Assembly (NCBI GenBank): GCA_030390025.1
Contig: CM059431.1
Span: forward strand, 104,906,001 to 104,970,000
DNA length: 64,000 nucleotides
DNA from: Squalus acanthias
Taxonomy: Eukaryota
Direction: 5' to 3'
Notes under the pieces: model-generated
Told to the model about the DNA's origin: nothing
Database searches by the model: none
What the model saw: the letters and a program-made list of their open reading frames with translations, nothing else
Shown: piece by piece, positions 13,818 to 64,000 of the stretch
How positions within the stretch are numbered: position 1 is the first letter of the stretch
How the letters are laid out: each line of letters opens with the position of its first letter
Made by a program: the position numbers and the translations under genes

Positions 13818-14351
13818 CTATCTATCTATCGATTTTCTTTCTTTAGAAAAGAGAAAAAAACGAGATATGATTCTGACCTGTGCATTTTATTTATGCTGAT
13901 TAATGAGCTTGTTTATCTTCCAGCATCCAATTCCAACAAAAGATCTACATCCGAAAAATTAAGCTGTCTGTTTGCTTCTGATCCTAACAGACCTGCGATG
14001 TATGTTCTGCAACAAAAAACTATTTTATTTTCAGTTGATCGAAAGGCAAGTCAGAAGGAATGGAATGCAATGTTGTAAGAAGTGTTGTAAGCCAGTAGAG
14101 TGTGTTAAGCTGCTCCAAACTGCTCAGTTTGTTAATGTACTCCTCACTGTGTAACTGAACCATACAGTCTAGGATGGTTCCAGGTTCATTCCTGCTCTGA
14201 GCCGAATTTGATATGATCTCAGCCAGTCACTGCAATTAACCTCAGCATCCCGAGCTGGAGATGGGGAAAAATCAGCCACAGTTCCCGCACTTAATTCCTT
14301 GTCGAATGGAAAAGAAACTCGGCCAGAGAGTAGAACGGGCTGCTGAATTAG

Positions 14352-26569: not shown

Positions 26570-29500
26570 ACAGCAGAGATACAGTCAGTAACACAGGGCG
26601 CTGGGGGGAGGGGTTACTGAATGACTGTGTGAGGGAGCTGGATTAACATCAGTAGAGATACAGTCAGTAACACAGGGCGCTGGGAGGAGAGGTTACTGAG
26701 TGACAGTGTGAGGGAGGTGGATTAACATCAGTACAGGGACAGTCAGTAACACAGGGCGCTGGGGGGAGAGGTTACTGAGTGACAGTGAGGGGGCTGGATT
26801 AACATCAGTAGAGATACAGTCAGTAATACAGGGCGCTGGGGGAGAGGGATTACTGAGTGACAGTGTGAGGGAGCTGGATTAACATTAGTAGAGATACAGT
26901 CAGTAACACAGGGTGCTGGGGGAGTGGGGTTACTGAGTGACAGTGAGAGGGAGCTGGATTAACATCAGTAGAGATACAGTCAGTAACACAGGGTGCTGGG
27001 GGAGTGGGGTTACTGAGTGACAGTGAGAGGGAGCTGGATTAACACCAGTAGAGGTACAGTCAGTGACACAGGGCGATGGGGGGAGAGGGATTACTGAGTG
27101 ACAGTGTGAGGGAGCTGGATTAACATCAGTAGAGATACAGTCAGTAACACAGGGCGCTGGGGGAGTGGGGTTACTGAGTGACAGTGAGAGGGAGCTGGAT
27201 TAACATCAGTAGAGATACAGTCAGTAACACAGGGCGCTGGGAGGAGAGGTTACTGAGAGACAGTGTGAGGGAGGTGCATTAACATCAGTACAGGGACAGT
27301 CAGTAACACAGGGTGCTGGGGGAGTGGGGTTACTGAGTGACAGTGAGAGGGAGCTGGATTAACACCAGTAGAGGTACAGTCAGTGACACAGGGCGATGGG
27401 GGGAGAGGGATTACTGAGTGACAGTGTGAGGGAGCTGGATTAACATCAGTAGAGATACAGTCAGTAACACAGGGCGCTGGGAGGAGAGGTTACTGAGAGA
27501 CAGTGTGAGGGAGGTGGATTAACATCAGTACAGGGACAGTCAGTAACACAGGGCGCTGGGGGGAGAGGTTACTGAGTGACAGTGAGGGGGCTGGATTAAC
27601 ATCAGTAGAGATACAGTCAGTAATACAGGGCGCTGGGGGAGAGGGATTACTGAGTGACAGTGTGAGGGAGCTGGATTAACATCAGTAGAGATACAGTCAG
27701 TAACACAGGGTGCTGGGGGAGTGGGGTTACTGAGTGACAGTGAGAGGGAGCTGGATTAACATCAGTAGAGATACAGTCAGTAACACAGGTTGCTGGGGGA
27801 GTGGGGTTACTGAGTGACAGTGAGAGGGAGCTGGATTAGCACCAGTAGAGGTACAGTCAGTGACACAGGGCGCTGGGGGGAGAGGTTACTGAGTGACAGT
27901 GAGGGGGCTGGATTAACATGAGTAGAGATACAGTCAGTGAAACAGGGTGCTGGGAGGAGAGGTTACTGAGAGACAGTGTGAGGGAGGTGGATTAACATCA
28001 GTACAGGGACAGTCAGTAACACAGGGCGCTGGGGGGAGAGGTTACTGAGTGACAGTGAGGGGGCTGGATTAACATCAGTAGAGATACAGTCAGTAATACA
28101 GGGCGCTGGGGGAGAGGGATTACTGAGTGACAGTGTGAGGGAGCTGGATTAACATCAGTAGAGATACAGTCAGTAACACAGGGTGCTGGGGGAGTGGGGT
28201 TACTGAGTGACAGTGAGAGGGAGCTGGATTAACATCAGTAGAGATACAGTCAGTAACACAGGGTGCTGGGGGAGTGGGGTTACTGAGTGACAGTGAGAGG
28301 GAGCTGGATTAACACCAGTAGAGGTACAGTCAGTGACACAGGGCGATGGGGGGAGAGGGATTACTGAGTGACAGTGTGAGGAGCTGGATTAACATCAGTA
28401 GAGATACAGTCAGTAACACAGGGTGCTGGGGGAGTGGGGTTACTGAGTGACAGTGAGAGGGAGCTGGATTAACATCAATAGAGATACAGTCAGTAACACA
28501 GGGCGCTGGGGGGAGGGGTTACTGAATGACTGTGTGAGGGAGCTGGATTAACATCATTAGCGATACAGTCAGTAGCACAAGGTGCTGGGGGGAGGGGTTA
28601 CTGAGTGACAGTGTGAGGGAGCTGGATTAACATCAGTAGAGATACAGTCAGTAACACAGGGCGCTGGGAGGAGAGGTTACTGAGTGACAGTGTGAGGGAG
28701 GTGGATTAACCTCAGTACAGGGACAGTCAGTAACACAGGGCGCTGGGGGGAGAGGTTACTGAGTGACAGTGAGGGGGCTGGATTAACATCAGCAGAGATA
28801 CAATCAGTAATACAGGGCGCTGGGGGAGAGGGATTACTGAGTGACAGTGTGAGGGAGCTGGATTAACATCAGTAGAGCTACAGTCAGTAACACAGGGTGC
28901 TGGGGGAGTGGGGTTACTGAGTGACAGTGAGAGGGAGCTGGATTAACATCAGTAGAGATACAGTCAGTAGCACAGGGTGCTGGGGGAGTGGGGTTACTGA
29001 GTGACAGTGAGAGGGAGCTAGATTAACACCAGTAGAGGTACAGTCAGTGACACAGGGCGATGGGGGGAGAGGGATTACTGAGTGACAGTGTGAGGGAGCT
29101 GGATTAACATCAGTAGAGATACAGTCAGTAACACAGGGTGCTGGGGGAGTGGGGTTACTGAGTGACAGTGAGAGGGAGCTGGATTAACATCAGTAGAGAT
29201 ACAGTCAGTAACACAGGGCGCTGGGAGGAGAGGTTACTGAGAGACAGTGTGAGGGAGGTGGATTAACATCAGTACAGGTACAGTCAGTAACACAGGGCGC
29301 TGGGGGGAGAGGTTACTGAGTGACAGTGAGGGGGCTGGATTAACATCAGTAGAGATACAGTCAGTAATACAGGGCGCTGGGGGAGAGGGATTACTGAGTG
29401 ACAGTGTGAGGGAGCTGGATTAACATCAGTAGAGATACAGTCAGTAACACAGGGTGCTGGGGGAGTGGGATTACTGAGTGACAGTGTGAGGGAGCTGGAT

Positions 29501-32500
29501 TAACATCAGTAGAGATACAGTCAGTAACACAGGGTGCTGGGGGAGTGGGGTTACTGAGTGACAGTGAGAGGGAGCTGGATTAACATCAGTAGAGATACAG
29601 TCAGTAACACAGGGTGCTGGGGAAGTGGGGTTACTGAGTGACAGTGAGAGGGAGCTGGATTAGCACCAGTAGAGATACAGTCAGTGACACAGGGCGCTGG
29701 GGGGAGAGGTTACTGAGTGACAGTGAGGGGCCTGGATTAACATCAGTAGAGATACAGTCAGTAACACAGGGTGCTGGGAGGAGAGGTTACTGAGTGACAG
29801 TGTGAGGGAGGTGGATTAACATCAGTACAGGGACAGTCAGTAACACAGGGTGCTGGGGGGAGAGGTAACTGAGTGACAGTGAGGGGGCTGGATTAACATC
29901 AGTAGAGATACAGTCAGTAATACAGGGCGCTGGGGGAGAGGGATTACTGAGTGACAGTGTGAGGGAAAGGATTAACATCAGTAGAGATACAGTCAGTCAC
30001 ACAGGGTGCTGGGGGAGTGGGGTTACTGAGTGACAGCGAGAGGGAGCTGGATTAACATCAGTAGAGGTACAGTCAGTGACACAGGGCGATGTGGGGAGAG
30101 GGATTACTGAGTGACAGTGTGAGGGAGCCGGATTAACATCAGTAGAGATACAGTCAGTAATACAGGGCGCTGGGGGGAGAGGGATTACTGAGTGACAGTG
30201 TGAGGGAGCTGGATTAACATCAGTAGAGATGCAGTCAGTAACACAGGGCACTGGGGGAGAGGGATTACTGAGTGACAGTGAGAGGGAGCTGGATTAACAT
30301 CAGTAGAGATACAGTCAGTATCACAGGGTGCTGGGGGAGTGGGGTTACTGAGTGACAGTGAGAGGGAACTGGATTAACACCAGTAGAGATACAGTCAGTA
30401 ACACAGGGTTGCTGGGGGAGTGGGGTTACTGAGTGACTGTGAGAGGGAGCTGGATTAACATCAGTAGAGATACAGTCAGTATCACAGGGTGCTGGGGGAG
30501 TGGGATTACTGAGTGACAGTGTGAGGGAGCTGGATTAACATCAGTAGAGATACAGTCAGTATCACAGGGTGCTGGGGGAGTGGGGTTACTGAGTGACAGT
30601 GTGAGGGAGCTGGATTAACATCAGTAGAGATACAGTCAGTATCACAGGGTGCTGGGGGAGTGGGGTTACTGAGTCACAGTGTGAGGGAGCTGGATTAACA
30701 TCAGTAGGGATACAGTCAGTATCACAGGGTGCTGGGAGGAGAGGTTACTGAGAGACAGTGTGAGGGAGGTGGATTAACATCAGTACAGGGACAGTCAGTA
30801 ACACAGGGTGCTGGGGGAGTGGGGTTACTGAGTGACAGTGAGAGGGAGCTGGATTAACACCAGTAGAGGTACAGTCAGTGACACAGGGCGATGGGGGGAG
30901 AGGGATTACTGAGTGACAGTGTGAGGGAGCTGGATTAACATCAGTAGAGATACAGTCAGTAACACAGGGTGCTGGGGGAGTGGGGTTACTGAGTGACAGT
31001 GAGAGGGAGCTGGATTAACATCAATAGAGATACAGTCAGTAACACAGGGCGATGGGGGGAGAGGGATTACTGAGTGACAGTGTGAGGGAGCTGGATTAAC
31101 ATCAGTAGAGATACAGTCAGTAACACAGGGTGCTGGGGAAGTGGGGTTACTGAGTGACAGTGAGAGGGAGCTGGATTAGCACCAGTAGAGATACAGTCAG
31201 TGACACAGGGCGCTGGGGGGAGAGGTTACTGAGTGACAGTGAGGGGCCTGGATTAACATCAGTAGAGATACAGTCAGTAACACAGGGTGCTGGGAGGAGA
31301 GGTTACTGAGTGACAGTGTGAGGGAGGTGGATTAACATCAGTACAGGGACAGTCAGTAACACAGGGTGCTGGGGGGAGAGGTAACTGAGTGACAGTGAGG
31401 GGGCTGGATTAACATCAGTAGAGATACAGTCAGTAATACAGGGCGCTGGGGGAGAGGGATTACTGAGTGACAGTGTGAGGGAAAGGATTAACATCAGTAG
31501 AGATACAGTCAGTCACACAGGGTGCTGGGGGAGTGGGGTTACTGAGTGACAGCGAGAGGGAGCTGGATTAACATCAGTAGAGGTACAGTCAGTGACACAG
31601 GGCGATGTGGGGAGAGGGATTACTGAGTGACAGTGTGAGGGAGCTGGATTAACATCAGTAGAGATACAGTCAGTAATACAGGGCGCTGGGGGGAGAGGGA
31701 TTACTGAGTGACAGTGTGAGGGAGCTGGATTAACATCAGTAGAGATGCAGTCAGTAACACAGGGCACTGGGGGAGAGGGATTACTGAGTGACAGTGAGAG
31801 GGAGCTGGATTAACATCAGTAGAGATACAGTCAGTATCACAGGGTGCTGGGGGAGTGGGGTTACTGAGTGACAGTGAGAGGGAACTGGATTAACATCAGT
31901 AGAGATACAGTCAGTAACACAGGGTTGCTGGGGGAGTGGGGTTACTGAGTGACTGTGAGAGGGAGCTGGATTAACATCAGTAGAGATACAGTCAGTATCA
32001 CAGGGTGCTGGGGGAGTGGGGTTATGAGTGACAGTGTGAGGGAGCTGGATTAACATCAGTAGAGATACAGTCAGTATCACAGGGTGCTGGGGGAGTGGGG
32101 TTACTGAGTGACAGTGTGAGGGAGCTGGATTAACATCAGTAGGGATACAGTCAGTATCACAGGGTGCTGGGAGGAGAGGTTACTGAGAGACAGTGTGAGG
32201 GAGGTGGATTAACATCAGTACAGGGACAGTCAGTAACACAGGGTGCTGGGGGAGTGGGGTTACTGAGTGACAGTGAGAGGGAGCTGGATTAACACCAGTA
32301 GAGGTACAGTCAGTGACACAGGGCGATGGGGGGAGAGGGATTACTGAGTGACAGTGTGAGGGAGCTGGATTAACATCAGTAGAGATACAGTCAGTAACAC
32401 AGGGTGCTGGGGGAGTGGGGTTACTGAGTGACAGTGAGAGGGAGCTGGATTAACATCAATAGAGATACAGTCAGTAACACAGGGTGCTGGGGGAGTGGGG

Positions 32501-35500
32501 TTACTGAGTGACAGTGAGAGGGAGCTGGATTAACAGCAGTAGAGGTACAGTCAGTGACACAGGGCGATGGGGGGAGAGGGATTACTGAGTGACAGTGTGA
32601 GGGAGCTGGATTAACATCAGTAGAGATACAGTCAGTAATACAGGGTGCTAGGGGAGAGGGATTACTGAGTGACAGTGTGAGGGAGCTGGATTAACATCAG
32701 TAGAGATACAGTCAGTAACACAGGGCACTGGGGGGAGGGGTTACTGAATGACTGTGTGAGGGAGCTGGATTAACATCATTAGAGATACAGTCAGTAACAC
32801 AGGGTGCTGGGGGGAGGGGTTACTGAGTGACAGTGTGAGGGAGCTGGATTAACATCAGTAGAGATACAGTCAGTAACACAGGGCGCTGGGAGGAGAGGTT
32901 ACTGAGTGACAGTGTGAGGGAGGTGGATTAACATCAGTACAGGGACAGTCAGTAACACAGGGCGCTGGGGGGAGAGGTTACTGAGTGACAGTGAGGGGGC
33001 TGGATTAACATCAGTAGAGATACAGTCAGTAATACAGGGCGCTGGGGGAGAGGGATTACTGAGTGACAGTGTGAGGGAGCTGGATTAACATTAGTAGAGA
33101 TACAGTCAGTAACACAGGGTGCTGGGGGAGTGGGGTTACTGAGTGACAGTGAGAGGGAGCTGGATTAACACCAGTAGAGGTACAGTCAGTGACACAGGGC
33201 GATGGGGGGAGAGGGATTACTGAGTGACAGTGTGAGGGAGCTGGATTAACATCAGTAGAGATACAGTCAGTAACACAGGGCGCTGGGAGGAGAGGTTACT
33301 GAGAGACAGTGTGAGGGAGGTGGATTAACATCAGTACAGGGACAGTCAGTAACACAGGGCGCTGGGGGGAGAGGTTACTGAGTGACAGTGAGGGGGCTGG
33401 ATTAACATCAGTAGAGATACAGTCAGTAATACAGGGCGCTGGGGGAGAGGGATTACTGAGTGACAGTGTGAGGGAGCTGGATTAACATCAGTAGAGATAC
33501 AGTCAGTAACACAGGGTGCTGGGGGAGTGGGCTTACTGAGTGACAGTGAGAGGGAGCTGGATTAACATCAGTAGAGATACAGTCAGTAACACAGGGTGCT
33601 GGGGGAGTGGGGTTACTGAGTGACAGTGAGAGGGAGCTGGATTAGCACCAGTAGAGGTACAGTCAGTGACACAGGGCGCTGGGGGGAGAGGTTACTGAGT
33701 GACAGTGAGGGGGCTGGATTAACATGAGTAGAGATACAGTCAGTGACACAGGGTGCTGGGAGGAGAGGTTACTGAGAGACAGTGTGAGGGAGGTGGATTA
33801 ACATCAGTACAGGGACAGTCAGTAACACAGGGCGCTGGGGGGAGAGGTTACTGAGTGACAGTGAGGGGGCTGGATTAACATCAGTAGAGATACAGTCAGT
33901 AATACAGGGCGCTGGGGGAGAGGGATTACTGAGTGACAGTGTGAGGGAGCTGGATTAACATCAGTAGAGATACAGTCTATAACACAGGGTGCTGGGGGAG
34001 TGGGGTTACTGAGTGACAGTGAGAGGGAGCTGGATTAACATCAGTAGAGATACAGTCAGTAACACAGGGTGCTGGGGGAGTGGGGTTACTGAGTGACAGT
34101 GAGAGGGAGCTGGATTAACACCAGCAGAGGTACAGTCAGTGACACAGGGCGATGGGGGGAGAGGGATTACTGAGTGACAGTGTGAGGGAGCTGGATTAAC
34201 ATCAGTAGAGATACAGTCAGTAACACAGGGTGCTGGGGGAGTGGGGTTACTGAGTGACAGTGAGAGGGAGCTGGATTAGCAGCAGTAGAGGTACAGTCAG
34301 TGACACAGGGCGATGGGGGGAGAGGGATTACTGAGTGACAGTGTGAGGGAGCTGGATTAACATCAGTAGAGATACAGTCAGTAATAAAGGGCGCTGGGGG
34401 AGAGGGATTACTGAGTGACAGTGTGAGGGAGCTGGATTAACATCATTAGCGATACAGTCAGTAACACAGGGTGCTGGGGGGAGGGGTTACTGAGTGACAG
34501 TGTGAGGGAGCTGGATTAACATCAGTAGAGATACAGTCAGTAACACAGGGTGCTGGGAGGAGAGGTTACTGAGTGACAGTGTGAGGGAGGTGGATTAACA
34601 TCAGTACAGGGACAGTCAGTAACACAGGGCGCTGGGGGGAGAGGTTACTGAGTGACAGTGAGGGGGCTGGATTAACATCAGTAGAGATACAGTCAGTAAC
34701 ACAGGGTGCTGGGAGGAGAGGTTACTGAGTGACAGTGTGAGGGAGCTGGATTAACATCAGTAGAGATACAGTCAGTAACACAGGGCGCTGGGAGGAGAGG
34801 TTACTGAGTGACAGTGTGAGGGAGGTGGATTAACATCAGTACAGGGACAGTCAGTAACACAGGGCGCTGGGGGGAGAGGTTACTGAGTGACAGTGAGGGG
34901 GCTGGATTAACATCAGTAGAGATACAATCAGTAATACAGGGCGCTGGGGGAGAGTGATTACTGAGTGACAGTGTGAGGGAGCTGGATTAACATCAGTAGA
35001 GCTACAGTCAGTAACACAGGGTGCTGGGGGAGTGGGGTTACTGAGTGACAGTGAGAGGGAGCTGGATTAACATCAGTAGAGATACAGTCAGTAGCACAGT
35101 GTACTGGGGGAGTGGGGTTACTGAGTGACAGTGAGAGGGAGCTGGATTAACACCAGTAGAGGTACAGTCAGTGACACAGGGCGATGGGGGGAGAGGGATT
35201 ACTGAGTGACAGTGTGAGGGAGCTGGATTAACATCAGTAGAGATACAGTCAGTAACACAGGGTGCTGGGGGAGTGGGGTTACTGAGTGACAGTGAGAGGG
35301 AGCTGGATTAACATCAGTAGAGATACAGTCAGTAACACAGGGCGCTGGGAGGAGAGGTTACTGAGAGACAGTGTGAGGGAGGTGGATTAACATCAGTACA
35401 GGTACAGTCAGTAACACAGGGCGCTGGGGGGAGAGGTTACTGAGTGACAGTGAGGGGGCTGGATTAACATCAGTAGAGATACAGTCAGTAATACAGGGCG

Positions 35501-35546
35501 CTGGGGGAGAGGGATTACTGATTGACAGTGTGAGGGAGCTGGATTA
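26570..35546. repeat. ~80-bp tandem repeat array, left part (~113 units)
   Basis: Unit CATCAGTAGAGATACAGTCAGTAACACAGGGTGCTGGGGGAGTGGGGTTACTGAGTGACAGTGAGAGGGAGCTGGATTAA with 77-81-bp variants. Confidence 0.98.
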
Positions 35547-37366
35547 CATAGATACATAGATACATAGAAGATAGGAGCAGGAGTAGGCCATCCGGCCCTT
35601 CGAGCCTGCTCCGCCATTTAATGAGATCATGGCTGATCCTCCAATTCAGTATCCCGTCCCCGCCTTCTCTCCGTAACCCTTAACCCCTTTTGCCTGTAGA
35701 AATATATCTAATTCCCTCTTAAATATATTTAATGAGCTGGCGTACACTGCCCTCTGTGGCAATGAGTTCCACAGGTTCACCACCCTCTGAGTGAAGAAAT
35801 TCCCCCTCATTTCTGTCCTAAATGGTTTAGCCCTTATCCTTAAATTATGACCTCTAGTTCTGTTCTCACCCGCCAAGGGAAACATTCCTTCTGCATCTAG
35901 TCTGTCTAGACCTGTCAGAATTTTATACACTTCTATGAGGTCCCCTCTCAATCTTCTAAACTCCAGTGTGTACATCCCTAAACTACATAGTCTCTCCTCA
36001 TAGGTCAATCCCGCCATTCCTGGTATCAGCCTGGTGAATCGCCGCTGCACCCCCTCCATGGCAAGAACATCTTTCCTCAGATGAGGCGACCAAAACTGTA
36101 CACAGTACTCGAGGTGTGGTCTCACCAGTGCCCTGTACAGCTGCAGCAGGTATCCCTGTTCCTGTATTCCAACCCTTTTGCTATGAAGGCCAGCATACCG
36201 TTTGCCTTCTTGATCGCCTGTTGCACCTGCATGCTCGCCTTCAGTGACTGGTGTACAAGAACACCCAGGTCTCTCTGTACTTCCCCCTCTCCCAATTTAT
36301 TGCCATTTAAATAATAATTTGCCCTCCCGTTCCTGCACCCAAGGTGGATAACTTCGCACTTGTCCACATTATAGTGCATCTGCCATTTATCCGCCCAATC
36401 ACCCAGTCTGTCCAAATCGCTCTGGAGCTTCCTGGTCTCCTCCTCTGAGCCCACCCCCCCTCCTAGTTTAGTGTCGTCTGCAAATTTGGAAATGCTGCAT
36501 CCGACTCCCTGATCCAGGTCATTAATGTAAATTGTGAACAGCTGGGGACCCAGGACAGATCCCTGTGGTACCCCACTTGTTACTGCCTGCCATTCAGAAA
36601 ATGAGCCGTTTATTCCAACTCTCTGTTTTCTATCTGACAGCCAGTTCTCTATCCACGTCAATACTTTCCCCTTTATCCCATGAGCTTCAATTTTCCCTGC
36701 TAATCTTTTATGTGGGACCTTATCGAAGGCCTTTTGGAAGTCCAGGTACACCACATCGACTGGCTCTCCCCCATCTATTTTACCAGTTACTCCCTCAAAA
36801 AATTCCAATAGATTAGTCAAGCACGATTTACCCTTTGTAAATCCATGTTGACTCTGTCCTATCCTGTCCCCATTTGCTAAGTGCTCCGCTATTTCATCCT
36901 TAATGATGGACTCCAGCATTTTGCCCACAACTGATGTAAGGCTTACAGGTCTGTAATTACCTGCTTTTTTCCTACCCCCCTTTTTGAATAGTGGGGTAAC
37001 GTTAGCTACCCTCCAATCCATGGGCACTGTTCCCGAGTCTAATGAATTCTGAAAAATCATACTTAGTGCATCCGCTATCTCTAGGGCCACCTCCTTCAGC
37101 ACCCTAGGATGCATGTTATCAGGCCCTGGGGATTTGTCCGCCTTCAATCCCTTTAGCTTCCTTAACACCATATCCTTAGAGATATTGACTTGCGTCAGTT
37201 CCTCCTTTGCAAATGTCCCTATTTTTCCCGATATCCCAGGGAGGTTCTTTGTGTCTTCCTTCGTAAAGACTGACCCAAAGTATGCATTTAGTTGGTCTGC
37301 CATTTCCTTATTTCCCGTTATATATTCCCCCGTATCTGACTGCAATGGGCCAACTTTGGTTTTCAC
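35547..37366 (-). mobile_element. 5'-truncated CR1 LINE (RT region, one frameshift) inserted in the array
   Basis: 414-aa ORF (NYRPVSLTS, QHGF, YLDFQKAFDKV, GVPQGSVLGP, FADD) plus 159-aa C-terminal ORF joined by a frameshift ~36150; (TATCTATG)n tail. Confidence 0.96.
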
Positions 37367-39125
37367 AGGGTGCTGGGGAGTGGGATTACTGAGTGACAGT
37401 GAGAGGGAGCTGGATTAACATCAGTAGAGATACAGTCAGTAACACAGGGTGCTGGGGGAGTGGGGTTACTGAGTGACAGTGAGAGGGAGCTGGATTAGCA
37501 CCAGTAGAGATACAGTCAGTGACACAGGGCGCTGGGGGGAGAGGTTACTGAGTGACAGTGAGGGGCCGGATTAACATCAGTAGAGATACAGTCAGTAACA
37601 CAGGGTGCTGGGAGGAGAGGTTACTGAGTGACAGTGTGAGGGAGGTGGATTAACATCAGTACAGGGACAGTCAGTAACACAGGGTGCTGGGGGGAGAGGT
37701 AACTGAGTGACAGTGAGGGGGCTGGATTAACATCAGTAGAGATACAGTCAGTAATACAGGGCGCTGGGGGAGAGGGATTACTGAGTGACAGTGTGAGGGA
37801 AAGGATTAACTTCAGTAGAGATACAGTCAGTAACACAGGGTGCTGGGGGAGTGGGGTTACTGAGTGACAGTGAGAGGGAGCTGGATTAACATCAGTAGAG
37901 ATACAGTCAGTAACACAGGGTGCTGGGGGAGTGGGGTTACTGAGTGACAGTGAGAGGGAGCTGGATTAACATCAGTAGAGGTACAGTCAGTGACACAGGG
38001 CGATGTGGGGAGAGGGATTACTGAGTGACAGTGTGAGGGAGCTGGATTAACATCAGTAGAGATACAGTCAGTAATACAGGGCGCTGGGGGAGAGGGATTA
38101 CTGAGTGACAGTGTGAGGGAGCTGGATTAACATCAGTAGAGATACAGTCAGTAACACAGGGTGCTGGGGGAGTGGGGTTACTGAGTGACAGTGAGAGGGA
38201 GCTCGATTAACACCAGTAGAGGTACAGTCAGTAATACAGGGCGCTGGGGGGAGAGGGATTACTGAGTGACAGTGTGAGGGAGCTGGATTAACATCAGTAG
38301 AGATGCAGTCAGTAACACAGGGCACTGGGGGAGAGGGGTTACTGAGTGACAGTGTGAGGGAACTGGATTAACACCAGTAGAGATACAGTCAGTATGACAG
38401 GGTGCTGGGGGAGTGGGGTTACTGAGTGACAGTGTAAGGGAGCTGGATTAACATCAGTAGAGATACAGTCAGTATCACAGGGTGCTGGGGGAGTGGGGTT
38501 ACTGAGTGACAGTGAGAGGGAACTGGATTAACACCAGTAGAGATACAGTCAGTAACACAGGGTTGCTGGGGGAGTGGGGTCACTGAGTGACAGTGTGAGG
38601 GAGCTGGATTAACATCAGTAGGGATACAGTCAGTATCACAGGGTGCTGGGGGAGTGGGGTTACTGAGTGACAGTGTGAGGGAGCTGGATTAACATCAGTA
38701 GAGATACAGTCAGTATCACAGGGTGCTGGAGGAGTGGGGTTAGTGAGTGACAGTGTGAGGGAGCTGGATTAACATCAGCAGAGATACAGTCAGTATCACA
38801 GGGTGCTGGGGGAGTGGGGTTACTGAGTGACAGTGTGAGGGAGCTGGATTAACATCAGTAGGGATACAGTCAGTATCACAGGGTGCTGGGGGAGTGGGGT
38901 TACTGAGTGACAGTGTGAGGGAGCTGGATTAACATCAGTAGAGATACAGTCAGTATCACAGGGTGCTGGGGGAGTGGGGTTACTGAGTGACAGTGAGAGG
39001 GAGCTGGATTAACACCAGTAGAGATACAGTCAGTATCACAGGATGCTGGGGGAGTGGGGTTACTGAGTGACAGTGAGAGGGAGCTGGATTAACACCAGTA
39101 GAGACACAATCAGCGACACGGGGCA
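37364..39125. repeat. ~80-bp tandem repeat array, right part (~22 units)
   Basis: Same unit resumes after the CR1 and decays at ~39120. Confidence 0.98.
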
Positions 39126-50656: not shown

Positions 50657-51029
50657 GAGTAGTAATCAATATTTAGATGCTGTAAATTAATACAGTAATA
50701 AAGAATAGATGTTTGTGGATTACATGTTAGTAATCGAATCGAGAAGATTAGGTGGAATTGCAGAGTGTAATAACAAAGTGTAAGCATTTTACTATTCAAC
50801 AGAACCCGAGCACTGGATTACTGCCTGCCCTTCACTGACGGGCATTCATAAAGTAAGACTTGCAATTCTACAGCGCCTTGCATGATGTCAGGACGTCCCA
50901 AAGCGCTTTACAGCCAATGAAGTACTTTATGAAGTGCAGTCGCTGTTGTAATGTAGCAAATCTAGCATTGTTTGTCCTCTATAGAGATTCTAACTTTCCA
51001 GCAGTTGCTTCAGCTCATCTTGCAAATTG

Positions 51030-51099
51030 ATGCCAAGTAACGCAGGAACTCCCAAGATACTAGGCTGTGAAGTGCGATATCAACCTTGCAGGATACCAG
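51030..51099 (+). other. Candidate exon (coding part) of an unidentified transcript
   Basis: ATG at 51030, open to donor CAG|GTATGT (phase 1); pyrimidine-rich acceptors upstream at 50984, 51001 and 51004. Confidence 0.3.
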
Positions 51100-51306: not shown

Positions 51307-51351
51307 AGAGCACGGAAATGTCTGATCATCTCTATTACAACCTGCTGGAAG
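51307..51351 (+). other. Candidate 45-nt symmetric phase-1 exon
   Basis: aaatcttttcag|..|gtgaga; open frame ESTEMSDHLYYNLLE. Confidence 0.38.
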
Positions 51352-54177: not shown

Positions 54178-54739
54178 AAGTCTAGCCAGTTAGTAAGCCT
54201 AGCTCATTAGTAAGACTAGCTTATTAGTAAGTCTAGCCAGTTAGTAAATCTAGCTCATTAGTAAGACTAGTTCATTAGTAAGTCGAGCCAGTTAGTAAAT
54301 CTAGCTCATTAGTAAGACTAGTCAGTTAGTAAAACTAGCTCATTAGTAAGACTAGCCAGTTAGTAGGTCTAGCTCATGAGTAAGACTAGCCAGTTAGTAA
54401 GACTAGCCAGTTAGTAAAACTAGCTCATTAGTAAGACTAGCCAGTTAGTAAGACTAGCCAGTTAGTAAGTCTAGCTCATTAGTAAGACCAGCCAGTTAGT
54501 AAGTCTAGCCAGTTAGTACGTCTAGCCAGTTAGTAAGACTAGCTCATTAGTAAGACTAGCCAGTTAGTAAGTCTAGCTCATTCGTAAGACTAACCAGTTA
54601 GTAAGCCCAGCTCATTAGTAAGACTAGTTAGTTAGTAAGTCTAGCCAGTTAGTAAGTCTAGCTCATTAGTAAGACTAGCCAGTTAGTAAGTCTAGCTAAT
54701 TAGTAAGACTAGCTAGTTAGTAAGCCTAGCCAGTTAGTA
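54178..54739. repeat. 17-bp minisatellite (~33 units, two variants)
   Basis: TAAG(T/A)CTAG-CCAGT-TAG and TAAG(T/A)CTAG-CTCAT-TAG units. Confidence 0.95.
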
Positions 54740-55055
54740 TTTTTAAGATATTTTACCATCATAACCAGGATCAATCCTGTTCTTGGCCAATGTTCATGCA
54801 TGCTTTCCAGTGGGACTCGCTGGATTGGGTATATGATTCTATGAGGATGTGGTCCTCATTTCAGCACCTCGGTCAAATGGCTATCCTTCATTTAGGCAGT
54901 TAGTATTAGCAGCGTGTCTAGACAACGGAGGACGTCTCAATCGAGAACAATCCTCCTGCCCTGACGTTACCCATTGTTCATACTTTTCAGAAGCACTCAC
55001 TGGATTATCACAAGGAGCAGAAACCTAACCCGATTGTTTCCTTACTTCTCCAAGA

Positions 55056-55170
55056 GAATGCAAATACGGACGGTATTATGAAAAGCACCCCAGAAGAGCG
55101 AGAGAGAATCATCAAGCAGTTAAAGGAAGAGCTGGGACGGGAGGAAGCCAAACTTGTCCTGCTTAAGAAA
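55056..55170 (+). pseudogene. GATAD2A: Isolated fragment of the GATAD2A (p66-alpha) CR1 coiled-coil coding sequence
   Basis: Translates [38 protein letters not shown] versus recalled human GATAD2A ..[38 protein letters not shown]; flanked by CTCCAAGA direct repeats; no other GATAD2 exons found. Confidence 0.85.
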
Positions 55171-55495
55171 CTCCAAGAATCACGGAGGCCAATTGCAGCC
55201 AATTTGAACTGTCGCTCGGGCGAGCTTGGATGGTGCTGAAAGACACTCAGTGCTGCCATTACTGTGCAAGGGTACAATGTTGTGGCATCACACACTCATA
55301 TCCATTTTTTTCCCCCCCAAGTGTGTGAGTCCAACAAAGATGTTACAGTTTAGCCAAGGTGGAATGTGACTGAGCAGGTTTGGGAATGGGCACTGCTATG
55401 ATGATGTGCAACCTGGTGTCTCTGAACAATCTGCAGCACAGCAGGTGGGCTGAGTTGTAAACTTCGTGAAATCGCTGCTTGTCTTGTCTTTCAAG

Positions 55496-55616: not shown

Positions 55617-56307
55617 GTGAGATATGTTTAACATATGGTGCATTAAGGTCTTTTTTAATTTCTGGCAACAAATGTTTTAAAAATCCAAATTTTACCATTT
55701 CTAGACAGGATATCAACAGCATAGTGTACATATGATCTTAATCAATTATGAAAAATCATTGTTACAATTTTATAGGAGTGAATCACTAAACACCTAGGGG
55801 TAAAAATTCACTTGGTTGTGCCTCCCGTTAGCGCCTTAAGAGGGCGCTAATGGGGCGTTAAGCCGCTAACGCCCGGGCGCAGCGATGTTTGCGCCGCTCG
55901 AGAACTTAACTTGAGATTGTGCGGCGGCGCTAAAACTTACCGCTGCGACCACCTGCGCGCGCAGATTATGATGTCATTCCATGGTGCAACGCCCTTGGGG
56001 CGCCCCGGAGCGGAAATTGAGTGGCGCCCCCTGCCTTACCGCCTGGCGCTTCCAACGACCGGAAGACTGGAACGCTATCAATCGGTGTGGGGCTGGGGGG
56101 GGCGCTATTTAAAGGGGGCCTCTTCCTGTCTTTTTCTGTGGTCGACATTTATGCACCACTCGTTCTGAGAGAGAGAGAGAGATTCGGAGAGAGAGAGAGA
56201 GAGACTTCTACATTGACTCAACGCTTTGTGAGGTAGTTTTGCCTATTCATCCTAACTTTGTTGCTACTTTAGTTGCTGTACCTCATTACTTTTCTGGCAA
56301 AGAGAAT

Positions 56308-57468
56308 ATGGGGGCTGCAATGATTGGGGGCGTCGTCCTGCTCCAGCTGAATCGGAGGATACAGAGACGCAGACAGAGAGTGGCAATGATGGCCAGACGG
56401 AGGAGGGCCATCAGGCGCATGTACAGGAGAGCTTACCCTCCCAGGGTATATCGTGAACAGCTCTCCTACATCCATATGTCCGAGGAGCTGTGTTTGCGAA
56501 GGCTGCGATTCAGCAAGGAGGTGGTCACTGAGCTCTGCCACCTGCTGCAGCCAGATCTGCAGCCTCAGCTGAGGTCCAGGACGTCTCTGTCGGTGGCAGT
56601 GAAGGTCACAGTGGCTTTGAACTTCTACGCCACTGGCTCATTCCAAGCTGCTGTTGGGGACCTCGCCAATATCTCCCAGTTTGCGGTGCATCGCTGCATC
56701 CGGCAGGTCACCAATGCCTTCTTCAGAAGGAGACGAGACTTCATCTCTTTCCCTATGACCCCAGACAAGCAGCGTGACCGTGCTCTGGGCTTTGCGAGGG
56801 TAGCGGGCTTCCCCATGGTGCAGGGCGCCATTGACTGCACGCATGTGGCTTTGCGTGCTCCGCGAGAGAATGCAGAGGAATTCAGGAACAGAAAGGGGTT
56901 CCATTCCTTGAATGTGCAGTTGGTCTCTGACCACAGACAGGTGATACTCGCTGTCAATGCCCACTATCCGGGCAGCTGCCACGATGCTTTCATCCTGCGC
57001 CAGACTACTGTGGCAGAAGTTTTCGAGGCACCGCATCAGCCAGTTGGTTGGCTTCTCGGGGACAAGGGGTACGCATTGAGCACCTGGCTGATGACACCGC
57101 TCCGTACGCCAAACACCCCTGCTGAGCTGCGGTACAATGAAAGCCATCAAGCAACCAGGAACATTATTGAGCGCACAATCGGCGTGCTGAAACAACGGTT
57201 CCGCTGTCTGGACCATTCCGGAGGAGCCCTGCAGTACTCGCCTGAGCAAGTTTCGAACTTCGTAGTCGTGTGCTGCATGTTGCACAACATGGCAATCCTC
57301 AGGACCCAGCCAATGCCACCAGGCCTTGTAGCACCACCAGAGGAGGAGGAGGAAGAGGAGGAACAGGACGAGGACGATGATCATCAGCAGCACCAAGGCG
57401 GGAGGGCGGCCCACAATGGTCAAACTGCAAGGGCCATCCGTCAACGACTAATAGCAAGCCGCTTCTAG
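56308..57468 (+). CDS. Harbinger DDE transposase (HARBI1-like nuclease family)
   Basis: Uninterrupted ORF; GAIDCTH, FRNRKGFHSLNVQ, YPGSCHDAFI, LLGDKGY and RNIIERTIGVLKQRFRCL motifs; first ATG 56308. Confidence 0.95.
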   Translation: MGAAMIGGVVLLQLNRRIQRRRQRVAMMARRRRAIRRMYRRAYPPRVYREQLSYIHMSEELCLRRLRFSKEVVTELCHLLQPDLQPQLRSRTSLSVAVKVTVALNFYATGSFQAAVGDLANISQFAVHRCIRQVTNAFFRRRRDFISFPMTPDKQRDRALGFARVAGFPMVQGAIDCTHVALRAPRENAEEFRNRKGFHSLNVQLVSDHRQVILAVNAHYPGSCHDAFILRQTTVAEVFEAPHQPVGWLLGDKGYALSTWLMTPLRTPNTPAELRYNESHQATRNIIERTIGVLKQRFRCLDHSGGALQYSPEQVSNFVVVCCMLHNMAILRTQPMPPGLVAPPEEEEEEEEQDEDDDHQQHQGGRAAHNGQTARAIRQRLIASRF

Positions 57469-57762
57469 GGCCCCTGCCATTGCTACAAACACTAATCAAC
57501 CCAGCACGCAACCCCTAAGCCGGCCAAGGCACCAATAATTCCAACCACCAGCCATGTATATTTTGAATACAGAAACGTATTTATTTTACAAACTCTGTGT
57601 GTGTCAATTCCTCATGACAAACTCATAGAAATAAACACAAAAAAACAGTCAATAACATAACTGGTTCTCACAACCTGGAGATAATGTCCAAAACACTAAA
57701 CAAAAGTTGGACCATGAACCTCGGCCTTTAATAAAAAAATGACCAGCATTTTGTCACACCTC

Positions 57763-59530
57763 CTACTTTTTGCCCTTCGAGGGTGATCTCCTTCCCTTGC
57801 GCACTTCCCCCCTTCTAACCCTACTGCTCCTCCGTAATGGGACCTCAGTGGCTGCAGCAAGGCTGGTGGAAGGCTGCTGCTCGTCAGACCCTGACACTGC
57901 AGATGCCCCTGAAGGACGGCCTCGACCACTTCTGGGCCTGGAGGGCCCGGCTGCAGACTGCACCAACTCTGCATGGGCGGCAGCAGTCTGTCCTACAGGC
58001 GGTGGCAAGTGCAGTGGAAAAGTGACAGTGTTGGCAGCAGGAATGCTGTCATCGTGCGAGAGGACAGCAACTCCCTGCTCGCCCGACACACTGGCACTCC
58101 CACGGGGCAGCACTTCAGCATCCGTAGCAATTTGCCGGAGAACAGATTGCTGGCCTGCTGCGGCGCGGTGACAGCCCCGGGGACATGTGCACGAACCATC
58201 GAGGTTGGCAGCAGTCTGTGCTCGCGTGGCCTCCATCTGAGTCTGTATGAGAGCAGTCAGAGGTGGGATCACGGCAGCCAGTGACTGAATTGCAGCACTA
58301 AGCGTTAGTGTGGCATCCGCCTGTGCTACAGCGAAGTGCTCCACACTCCTTGCCAGTGACTCAATGCATTCGGGCACCCTTCCCACTGCACCCATGAGCT
58401 CAGTGTGCATGCACACCGCCTGGGTGTTCATTTCTGCAATCAGCCGCTCCTCCTCTGCGTCCATTGCAGTAGGAGTGTCTGGCATACTCTCCCTCTGGGG
58501 AGAAGGCCCCGTTCTTCCCTACCCCCCCCATGGCGTTGCTGCAGCCCGCTGGGTCCTGGAGCTTCACCATCATCAGCCCCTTCCCCCCTGCTCCCCTCCG
58601 GGGAAGGCGTGTTCCCAGTGTGGGCATGGGCTTCCTCGGGAGAGGGTGGCACTGATGCTCTGGCTTCCTCTTCCTCCTCAGCTGCAGCATCACTCCCAGT
58701 GGCAGCTTCAGGGCCCGTCTCCTCAGCTGGTGAATCACCATCTGAAAGCAGGGAGGTACAAGAGTGGCTTTAGCGTGAGGACAGGGTGGCAGTAAGGGAG
58801 GAATAAGTGCAGCGAGTTAGCAAGTTGGATTGAAAGTGTCAAAGGCTGGTGTTGTGAGGGACAAGTGGAAGGACAGAGGACAAAAATGTGATGACCTTAC
58901 TATTGCTGTCCACAACGGGGTCGGCGTCTCCAGTGGCGACGGGACCGATCACCCGGCTTGCCACAATCCTGTGGACGCGCTCCTCCAGATCGCTGAGGGG
59001 TTGCAGCTGAAGCCGCCCTCCACCTGTCCGTTGCTGCTGTCTCCTATTATGAGCCAGCTTAGCCTGCAAGAAAAAGGACAGCATCTGAGTAAATATACAG
59101 CCATGGTCTTGCCTGATGTGCCTCCCATAGGTGAATAGCCCTTACTGTATGCAAAGTGTGGAATGTGTGTGTGTGTTTGATGAAAGGGCCATAGGTGTTG
59201 GATGAGTGTTGTGCATTGGGGTTTTAAGACCCTCTGGCCTTAGAGTGAGGTTGAGATGGAGGGATGGAGAGGTATTGAGAAAAAGCCACTCACCCTGACG
59301 ACCCGAGTGAGGTCGTTGAACTTTTTGCGGCATTGAGTATGGGTCCTGGGCACCATGCTCCTGGAGGAGACGCTCTGAGCCACCTCCCTCCACACTCTTC
59401 TGAACTCGCGTGGCAAAGGCCTCCTGCCACTCTCAGGGAACAGCATACATCGTCTGCGCTCCACTGCGCCAACCAGAGCATCCAAGGCCCGCTCGGTGAA
59501 GCGATGAGCGCGTTCTCTCACCCTCTCCAT
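57763..59530 (-). CDS. Harbinger Myb/SANT-like DNA-binding protein; exons 59530-59294, 59063-58901, 58741-57763 (apparent frameshift ~58440-58518)
   Basis: Exon 1 RFTERALDALV..W.EVA..V....RT..QCRKKFNDL; canonical GT-AG introns in phase 0 and 1; exon 2 AKLAHNRRQQQRTGGG. Confidence 0.88.
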
Positions 59531-60214
59531 GCTTGGCAGCAAAATGGATTCACAGGTCTCTCCAGACTGAGATTCAAGGCTGCAATGAGCAGGGTGTGGC
59601 TGGGGAGCAAGTGGCCCCCCCCCGCTTTAAGAAGTGTCCGGCGCCATTGTGTCTGTGTTCCCTCGCTAACTGGCAGCAGCTGCGTTGCGCTCGCGCGCTG
59701 AGGTAGCGCCTCACTCCTTGGCCTTTGCGCCTTAAGACAGGTGTGCAGCGCCTGCTTTAGCGCTCCACTCACCTCCCAGGGCGGTAAAAGTGAAGTTTCC
59801 TTTCAGTGCCGATAATTAGCGCCAGGCGCTAATATTTGCGTCCAGACGATATTTGCGCCCCAAATGGGGCGCGACCTAATTTCTACCCCCTACTGCCATG
59901 ATTATTCAAGTATTCAGTGCTGGTCACAATTCCAAAGTGATGCTGTAATTAGATTTCAGCAGGAGGCTGTTGGGGATGAAAGGAGATGCGTTATCTCAGT
60001 TGCCAACGAGGCTGACATTGTTTTGTTTTTCAAGTGCCAACTTTATTTGTCTTGGTCAGTGCCTGATGTTTGACGCACATCCCCCATTTCTGACGTGTAG
60101 GATTAGCTAGAGGTAGTATTGAAGATATGAGTTGAAGAAATTCCCAGCATCTGGATTGAGTCAGAGCTTTTAGTATCACCAGCATTATTAGCGAAAAGCC
60201 GGAGACGGTGCGGC

Positions 60215-62180: not shown

Positions 62181-63974
62181 TCACGTTCTGTATCGTGACA
62201 TGAACCCGATATCGCGATTGAGGCCATCCTCATGAGTGCGGAACTTGGCTATCAGTTTCTGCTCTATGATTTTGCGCTGTCGTGTATCCCGAAGGCCGCC
62301 TTGGAGAACGCTTACCCGCAGATCCGAGGCTGAATGCCCCTGGCTGCTGAAGTGTTCCCCGACTGGGAGGCAACCCTCCTGCCTGGCGATTGTTGCGCGG
62401 TGTCCGTTCATACGTTGTCTCAGTGTCTGCATGGTCTCGCCGATGTACCATGCTCTGGAGCATCCTTTACTGCAACGTATCAGGTAGACAACGTTGGCCG
62501 AGTCACATGAGTATGTACCATGTACCTGGTGGGTAGTGTCCTCACGTGTGATGATGGTATCTGTGTCCATGATTTGGCATGTCTTGCAGAGGTTGCCGTG
62601 GCAGGGTTGTGTGGTGTCGTGGTTGCTGTTCTCCTGAAAGATGGGTAATCTGCTGCGAACTATGGTACTTTTGAGGTTAGGCGGCTGCTTGAAGGCGAGT
62701 AGTGGAGGCGTGGGGATGGCCTTAGCAAGGTGTTCGTTGTCATCGATGACATGTTGAAGGCTGCGAAGAACATGGCGTAGTTTTTCCGCTCCGGGGAAGT
62801 ACTGGACGACGTAGGGTACTCTGTTGGTTGTGTCCCGTGTTCGTCTTCTGAGGAGGTCTATGCGGTTTTTCGCTGTGGCCCGTCGGAACTGTCGATCGAC
62901 GAGTCGAGCGTCATATCCCGTTCTTACGAGGGCGTCTTTCAGTGTCCGTAGGTGTCCATCGCGTTCCTCCTCGTCTGAGCAGATCCTGTGTATTCGCAGG
63001 GCTTGTCCATAGGGAATGGCTTCTTTAACGTGGTTAGGGTGGAAGCTGGAGAAGTGGAGCATCGTGAGGTTGTCCGTGGGCTTGCGGTAGAGTGAAGTGC
63101 TGAGGCGTCCGTCTTTGATGGAGATTCGTGTGTCCAAGAATGAAACCGATTCTGAGGAGTAGTCCATGGTGAGTTTGATGGTGGGATGGAACCTGTTGAT
63201 GCTATCGTGTAGTCCTTTCAGTGATCCTTCGCTGTGGGTCCAAAGGAAGAAGATGTCGTCGATGTATCTGGTGTACAGCGTTGGTTGGAGGTCCTGTGCA
63301 GCGAAGAAGTCTTGCTCGAACTTGTGCATGAAGATGTTGGCGTATTGGGGTGCGAATTTGGTCCCCATGGCTGTTCCGTGTGTTTGGGTAAAAAAATGGT
63401 TGTCGAAGGTGAAGACATTGTGGTCAAGGATGAAGCGGATGAGTTGTAGGATGGCGTCTGGAGATTGGCTGTTGTTGGTGTTGAGTACTGAGGCTGTCGC
63501 AGCGATGCCGTCATTGTGGGGGATATTGGTGTAGAGTGCCGATACGTCCATCGTGACGAGGAGTGTTCCTGGTTCAACTGGTCCATGGGTGCTGAGTTTC
63601 TGCAAGAAGTCTGTAGTGTCGCGACAGAAGCTGGGGGTTCCCTGTACGATGGGTTTCAGGATGCCCTCGACGTACCCAGAGAGGTTCTCACACAGGGTTC
63701 CGTTGCCTGATACGATAGGACGTCCGGGTGTGTTGGCTTTGTGTATCTTTGGGAGGCAGTAAAAGTCTCCTATGCGGGGAGTACGTGGGATGAGAGCGCG
63801 TAGGATGTTTTGAAGGTCTGGATCGAAGGTCTTGATCAGTCTATTGAGTTGGCGGGTGTGTTCTTTGGTCGGATCTGCGGGTAGCTGTCTGTAGTGTTCC
63901 TGGTTGTCCAGTTGTCGGTATGCTTCTTTGCAATAGTCCATTCTGTTCTGTATGACGATGGCTCCTCCTTTGTC
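62181..63974 (-). CDS. Penelope-like reverse transcriptase with GIY-YIG endonuclease (N-terminally truncated)
   Basis: DKGGAIVI upstream of the listed Met; LPKIHK, GRPIVS, MDVSALYTNI, GTAMG and RYIDDIF motifs; Cys linker CHGNLCKTC; NVVYLIRC..YIGET; no stops or frameshifts. Confidence 0.96.
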   Translation of the reverse strand, partial: DKGGAIVIQNRMDYCKEAYRQLDNQEHYRQLPADPTKEHTRQLNRLIKTFDPDLQNILRALIPRTPRIGDFYCLPKIHKANTPGRPIVSGNGTLCENLSGYVEGILKPIVQGTPSFCRDTTDFLQKLSTHGPVEPGTLLVTMDVSALYTNIPHNDGIAATASVLNTNNSQSPDAILQLIRFILDHNVFTFDNHFFTQTHGTAMGTKFAPQYANIFMHKFEQDFFAAQDLQPTLYTRYIDDIFFLWTHSEGSLKGLHDSINRFHPTIKLTMDYSSESVSFLDTRISIKDGRLSTSLYRKPTDNLTMLHFSSFHPNHVKEAIPYGQALRIHRICSDEEERDGHLRTLKDALVRTGYDARLVDRQFRRATAKNRIDLLRRRTRDTTNRVPYVVQYFPGAEKLRHVLRSLQHVIDDNEHLAKAIPTPPLLAFKQPPNLKSTIVRSRLPIFQENSNHDTTQPCHGNLCKTCQIMDTDTIITREDTTHQVHGTYSCDSANVVYLIRCSKGCSRAWYIGETMQTLRQRMNGHRATIARQEGCLPVGEHFSSQGHSASDLRVSVLQGGLRDTRQRKIIEQKLIAKFRTHEDGLNRDIGFMSRYRT

Positions 63975-64000
63975 CGTTGGACTATAACCTGGTGTTGTGC

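Follow-up and report, generated by a model that had tools for sequence, protein, structure and literature searches.

Tailless retropseudogenes, whose first description is credited in PMC5322556 to Schmitz et al. 2004, are RNA-derived, 3′-truncated copies without oligo(A) (PMC5322556; also PMC2912911), and the definition given by Noll et al. 2015 (PMC5322556) combines a target-site duplication (TSD) of 8–35 nt with complementarity between the target and the final 2–18 nt of the RNA that was copied. The article mentions 5′- and 3′-truncated mRNA forms, and reports such copies only from therian mammals and the green anole, tying them to relaxed L1. Processed pseudogenes are intronless copies of spliced mRNAs, distant from an intact, intron-containing parent. 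In cartilaginous fish retrocopies are common, and the figures given in bioRxiv 10.64898/2026.06.26.734816 are 14,081 copies counted, 15.7% of them with an ORF, and median lengths of 375–674 bp. Templated sequence insertions are short pieces from a distant locus, for which spliced cDNA donors are known; as described in PMC5110952, class 1 requires a poly(A) with signal and a TTTT/A target, while class 2 has no TSD.

The insert studied here, 119 nt of spliced gatad2a mRNA at positions 55056–55174 of a 64,000-nt stretch of DNA (the window), resembles tailless retropseudogenes in being RNA-derived, 3′-truncated and free of oligo(A), in having an 8-bp repeat and 4 nt of CTCC that both fall within the published ranges, and in the A-rich stretch at the presumed priming site. 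It differs from them in a target without the WAAAAWW consensus preferred by the therian copies, and in its host, a cartilaginous fish lying outside the published range named above. Since the full consensus target TT/WAAAAWW is not seen here and the L1 machinery is putative, we regard the insert as working like a tailless retropseudogene rather than as a strict member of the group. With processed pseudogenes it shares the intronless copying of a spliced mRNA from a distant, intact, intron-containing parent, but it is an internal coding piece of 119 nt, without 3′ UTR or poly(A), and shorter than the medians given above. It is also like the templated insertions in being a short piece from a distant locus, and yet it fits neither class of these polymorphisms: the poly(A) with signal and the TTTT/A target of class 1 are both absent, and the 8-bp repeat is at variance with class 2. 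Among the titles and abstract openings listed in our literature search, none dealt with this locus or with tailless copies from sharks. The locus is likely an ordinary retro-fragment, decaying pseudogene scrap rather than a working microprotein.

Structure of the insert and its parent gene

The coordinates of the site are collected in Table 1. The original prediction, made from the sequence alone, placed ~115 bp of the CR1 helix of GATAD2A between direct repeats, without a poly(A), and both points are borne out: two perfect copies of the 8-mer CTCCAAGA enclose 115 bp, the insert frame matches the P66_CC family (PF16563; 49.6 bits, E 3.2e-13) and the p66-alpha structure PDB 2L2L (E 2.3e-9), and there is no poly(A) 3′ of the insert, which ends inside a coding exon at 55174. 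Similarity to the parent had also been thought to be lost at the repeats, which does not hold for the right one, as the parent match extends 4 nt into it. At this 3′ junction CTCC directly follows AAGAAA and the parent sequence continues through CTCC; parent contigs, when matched to the site, show loose ends at 55174. At the 5′ junction the match begins at 55056 with GAAT, and GAAT is also present in the target, where it overlaps the end of the repeat with a 2-nt ambiguity.

Table 1. Features of the insertion site, in positions of the window
Feature	Position	Strand	Evidence and remarks
Left part of the old SINE hosting the insert	54861–55047		Source of CCTAAC and the pyrimidine tract; profile alignment
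Left copy of CTCCAAGA, presumed target-site duplication	55048–55055	+	Contains AG 55053–55054
Upstream gatad2a exon, last 25 nt	55056–55080	+	24/25 vs C19:37882746-37882722 (minus strand); carries ATG 55078
gatad2a CR1 coiled-coil exon, first 94 nt	55081–55174	+	84/94 vs C19:37879818-37879725; PF16563
CTCC microhomology, 4 nt, in parent mRNA and target site; putative priming site	55171–55174	+	Junction comparison
Right copy of CTCCAAGA	55171–55178	+	Exact repeat
SINE continuing past the insert	55179–55199		Profile alignment
53-codon ORF	55078–55239	+	32 insert codons, then tail of repeat, SINE and flank

A DNA search of the 3.7-Gb genome with the insert gave two matches, its own site and C19:37879725-37879819. 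The latter belongs to the parent gatad2a gene, which is intact with at least 11 coding exons, and whose CR1 exon, when translated, is 100% identical to GATAD2A from numerous sharks and rays, which makes a cartilaginous fish the most likely host. The match to the upstream exon (E 7.7e-5) came from a search confined to 140 kb at the parent gene. In the parent, this exon is followed by GT, and the 2,903-nt GT..AG intron that starts there is missing from the insert, in which the 25 nt and 94 nt are joined exactly at the M|KS exon junction. As the insert crosses this junction without the intron, its template was spliced gatad2a RNA. The templated insertion originally proposed is thus supported and sharpened, since an alignment spanning M|KS was what the prediction had named as the sign of an RNA origin. 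The copy reads M-K-S; judging from database isoforms, this form arises when the proximal one of two acceptors in tandem is used.

The 94-nt part codes for the human-numbered residues K136–L165. Compared with the CR1 domain of GATAD2A (PF16563, PDB 2L2L), the copy thus retains residues 136–165 of the helix that binds MBD2, read in frame from the native methionine, and differs in ending just before R166, in having G153 and R or W at 154, and in showing no sign of constraint.

Some further observations concern the GATAD2 genes themselves. At C19:37879818-37879821, the CR1 exon of the parent is preceded by two acceptors in tandem (CAG-AAG), and shark and ray isoforms with and without K136 are found in the databases. 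A strict first-look search brought up a single full GATAD2 gene, and a sequence at C2132:12309-12443, which matches the GATAD2A C-terminus at 51%, might be a piece of GATAD2B. A third PF16563 match, on C20 (E 0.79), proved not to be GATAD2-like when its sequence was read.

Host SINE and the acceptor-like signal

About half of the window is repetitive, 31,075 bases being masked by local comparison. A SINE profile (nhmmer) was built from 22 local copies with the test site left out. It matches the insert-free site at 54861–55199 with 44.9 bits over model positions 2–224, compared with 3.0 bits for the best of 200 base shuffles. The SINE is collinear over this site when one copy of the repeat is kept, giving a net length change of zero. 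These results support the view that the insert interrupts an old SINE, which we take to be of the DeuSINE type, and that the 8-bp repeat is a true TSD. Because no empty orthologous site was seen among the three related species considered below (B, C and D), the latter point draws on the SINE profile. The flanks had been said to resemble a SINE at ~14180–14310. This is upheld by the profile, which also matches 14187–14296 on the minus strand, but not by pairwise alignment of the flanks to 14140–14340, which was not above chance (137/300 and 67/300 shuffles were as good). Used as DNA queries, the two flanks and the putative upstream exons matched nothing but their own site.

The upstream signal was originally described as a ready-made splice acceptor. 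Its parts are all present, with the branch-point-like CCTAAC at 55024–55029, a pyrimidine tract and the AG, although the base preceding AG is an A, which makes for a weaker AAG acceptor. They are however a feature of the SINE: among the 14 other copies that cover the segment, 10 have an AG after at least 13 pyrimidines in 18, and 3 reach at least 15 in 18, which is the value of the site itself. In the whole window there are 23 AG sites with at least 15/18 pyrimidines and a YTRAY motif, 7 on the plus strand and 16 on the minus strand. The site owes its acceptor-like signal to the SINE, and such signals are not rare. Just upstream of the SINE, positions 54178–54739 hold 17-bp units arrayed in tandem, with periods of 34, 51 and 85.

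Evolution of the insert in related species

The source genome of the window (organism A) was compared with those of B, C and D. In each of the three, a single contig covers the insert and both flanks at the same site, with no gap in the insert; being common to four species, the insert could serve as a presence/absence marker for shark phylogeny. The differences from A amount to 37 over ~1,020 bp in B, 38 in C, and 77 over 980 bp in D. Between A and B, 7 of 119 positions differ in the insert and 30 of 901 elsewhere (Fisher p 0.19), i.e. there is no deficit in the insert. The individual differences listed comprise 34 of the 37 for B, and few of those private to D. Those that separate A from B and C in the insert are seven, of which D shares five: three are synonymous and four are replacements (I/V, P138Q, G/R153 and R/W154), where 2.7–3.0 replacements would be expected at the rate of the flanks, that is, under neutrality. 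No indel or stop is found in the insert of B, C or D among the differences listed, with ~0.6 indels expected (B has 5 in 1,050 bp).

The nature of the replaced residues was assessed against stored homologues, 124 in number, of which 122 carry the motif; the set is biased to close matches and includes many isoforms. Positions P138, R153, L154 and R166 are invariant in 122/122 of them, while the copy has G153 in A, R154 in A or W154 in B, C and D, Q138 in B and C, and Q166. The M144I change is a natural one, seen in 34/122 homologues. The change of RL to GR that the original caveat took to suggest decay falls at R153 and L154.

Compared with its parent, the copy differs at 11 positions, seven of which are synonymous and four replacements, a distribution with p 0.06–0.18 if the copy is neutral and the parent constrained. 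This lean towards synonymous changes and the lack of listed indels and stops in the insert speak against the neutral reading. The replacement divergence between copy and parent (4 in 83–91 sites) is near half of the distance between A and D, which suggests that the insertion probably took place not long before the split of the four species. At these rates the insert appears to have drifted neutrally since its insertion, although the counts are small and therefore compatible with weak constraint as well. At positions 55071, 55075 and 55138, two of which are CpG sites, A has the base of the parent and the other three species do not; the reverse is seen at 55134 and 55135. Reads of a second individual of A, taken from ~55 in 100 of the run, left much of the insert uncovered.

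Mechanism of insertion

The insert, a copy of spliced gatad2a mRNA, was probably made by a LINE reverse transcriptase through internal priming, and is probably without function and in decay. With the spliced mRNA as template, a nick of the bottom strand in the germ line would yield a 3′ end complementary to CUCC, which lies just after the A-rich AAGAAA, and reverse transcription would begin there, inside the coding sequence; such an internal start would explain why there is neither a poly(A) nor the 3′ part of the gene. Synthesis would stop after ~115 nt, and the product would be linked to the top strand at a cut 8 nt from the nick. The GAAT match near the 5′ junction may have helped in this step, which would duplicate CTCCAAGA. 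The insert is found at the same site in all four species and, judging from the rates, would have undergone neutral drift from then on.

What speaks against the LINE route is the target itself, which reads TT/CTCCAAG and corresponds neither to the tailless consensus nor to the TT/AAAA of L1. A search for L1 ORF1 (PF02994), run without a positive control, gave no match. Tailless copies are primed in a single-stranded, A-rich part of the RNA. In the predicted RNA fold the AAGAAA before CUCC is unpaired; CUCC itself forms pairs in the minimum-energy structure but not in the centroid, and the fold is no better than those of shuffles (z +1.0). The genome also contains ten dispersed 7SK copies, none of which has an exact flanking repeat of at least 8 nt (one has a 7-mer), so that they provide no second example of the internal-priming route. 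These copies are old, nine of the ten being alignable at 68–85% to the best copy, and several are 3′-truncated, four of them ending at or before position 163. A search for a second case among U2 sequences returned 48 full-length array copies and nothing else. The tandem U2 snRNA array itself lies at C27:16099915-16125551, with a period of ~821 bp and at least 32 copies, and arrays with wider spacing are present on C12 and C27.

As the main alternative, a dead scrap of cDNA might have been patched into a staggered double-strand break by endonuclease-independent end joining, with microhomology at both ends, which we consider possible but rather unlikely. Such a patch would be in keeping with the lack of an L1-type target motif, with a short match at either junction (3′ CTCC, and GAAT with its 2-nt ambiguity near the 5′ end) and with the insert being a very short internal piece, and cDNA patches joined by microhomology are described in PMC5110952 as class 2 templated insertions. 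As characterised there, however, class 2 insertions lack the TSD and often come with micro-deletions, whereas the repeat found here is a perfect one and the SINE shows no net loss. Taking LINE priming and the break patch together, the product is very likely inert.

As it stands, the locus is a clean fossil, an mRNA retro-fragment of the tailless type from a cartilaginous fish. Further shark cases with target motifs other than those of L1 would be informative because the type is reported in PMC5322556 only from therians and a lizard, and is tied there to relaxed L1; they would show priming inside mRNAs to be within the reach of other LINEs or of repair enzymes.

Transcription and coding potential

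The remaining explanations give the insert a place in a transcript. The first is that it is carried, via the SINE-derived acceptor, in a non-coding or nonsense-decayed transcript with no protein function, which is improbable. Plausible donor and acceptor motifs exist at 51099/51100, 51306/51307, 51351/51352 and 55495/55496, and no difference between A and B or C is listed over 54959–55070, a run that includes the acceptor. However, a difference-free run of at least 112 bp occurred in 43% of 5,000 random placements, and both the unfavourable A before the AG and the 23 equally good sites in the window weigh against any particular use of this acceptor.

The original prediction went further and proposed exonisation into a NuRD-decoy microprotein. 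The reading frames on which it was based are real: ATG 55078, which has a purine at −3, opens an ORF of 53 aa, and the 99-aa ORF ending at 55239 is open too, though it needs three exons (51030–51099, 51307–51351 and 55055–55239). Signs of a host gene were sought around them. None of 94 candidate exons matched Pfam, these being 93 of 112 splice-filtered exons or frames plus 51003–51098, with the ones left out mostly transposon-like or of low complexity. The 28 long ORFs of the window gave transposon or weak matches only. The putative downstream exon of 41 aa has no homologue, which is weak evidence, and its alignment has a gap in the relatives, of 11 nt for B and C and 18 nt for D. Beyond CR1, the 53-aa ORF has no database protein match (6 of 11 candidates match, all with 66% cover), and the first downstream poly(A) signal, at 57630, is within a transposon that is absent from B.

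A microprotein of 53–99 aa, exonised or translated from ATG 55078, would have to bind the MBD2/3 coiled coil and displace GATAD2A-CHD4 from NuRD, which we consider highly improbable. Several features would be compatible with it, besides the purine at −3. The frame is open through the insert in four species, among the differences listed, the differences between copy and parent lean towards synonymous ones, and the tested interface residues I145 and L152 are intact. The loss of R166 may cost little, as binding by R166A is reported in PMC9231604 to be just 7.8-fold weaker (KD 33 nM), and PMC4381075 states that CR1, as a peptide on its own, binds to native MBD2 and lifts the silencing by MBD2 in cells. 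Considering the mild effect of R166A, the intact I145 and L152 and the activity of the CR1 peptide, MBD2 binding by the copy is still conceivable, and the case against a decoy is an evolutionary one.

That case has several parts. The purifying selection that marks a functional retrogene was not found: there is no deficit of substitutions, the number of replacements is neutral, and residues that are otherwise invariant have changed, with a glycine in the middle of the helix in A, and proline replaced by glutamine and leucine by tryptophan in B and C. Helical propensity tracks affinity in the CR1-MBD2 pair, as stated in PMC5240623, and G153 should therefore impair binding. A gap of 10 nt at 55221 puts the tail of the ORF out of frame in B and C, which would give ~93 aa instead of 53 on the background of A, and the 11-nt gap in the putative downstream exon, the lack of a protein match beyond CR1 and of a host gene, and the poly(A) signal placed in a transposon missing from B point in the same direction. 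With an acceptor derived from the SINE, putative neighbouring exons that match no protein, and evolution at the rate of the flanks, the exonised decoy is not supported. In its fullest form, as a shark-lineage NuRD decoy that is spliced in through the SINE acceptor, contacts MBD2/3 via I145 and L152 without the rest of GATAD2A and tunes methylation-dependent silencing, it would likewise be a most improbable outcome. Were it true, nature would have its own version of the engineered p66-alpha peptide, which lifts silencing by MBD2-NuRD, and only then would the locus be relevant to chromatin.

That the insert is a GATAD2 paralogue exon or a DNA-level duplication, as the acceptor-like signal upstream might suggest, is refuted by the crossing of the parent exon junction without its intron; also against it are the interrupted SINE and the absence of any further GATAD2 exon, which had been named as the sign of a paralogue, within 264 kb around the window (three shark GATAD2A queries, one of which gave weak N-terminal matches with E 0.11 or worse).

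Other elements in the window

Downstream of the insert, positions 55797–59889 are occupied by a PIF/Harbinger-type DNA transposon with terminal inverted repeats and a 3-bp CTA duplication, which contains an open DDE frame of 451 codons (56113–57468; DDE_Tnp_4, E 2.2e-38). The contig of B passes from 55796 straight to 59893 and B is therefore without this transposon; the contigs of C and D also stop matching at 55796. An 80-bp satellite extends over 26571–39113 in 113 and 22 copies; it is broken up by part of a LINE, whose reverse-transcriptase frame lies at 36122–37414 (RVT_1, E 1.8e-32). On the minus strand of 62190–64000, the reading frames resemble what we take to be a Penelope-type retroelement.
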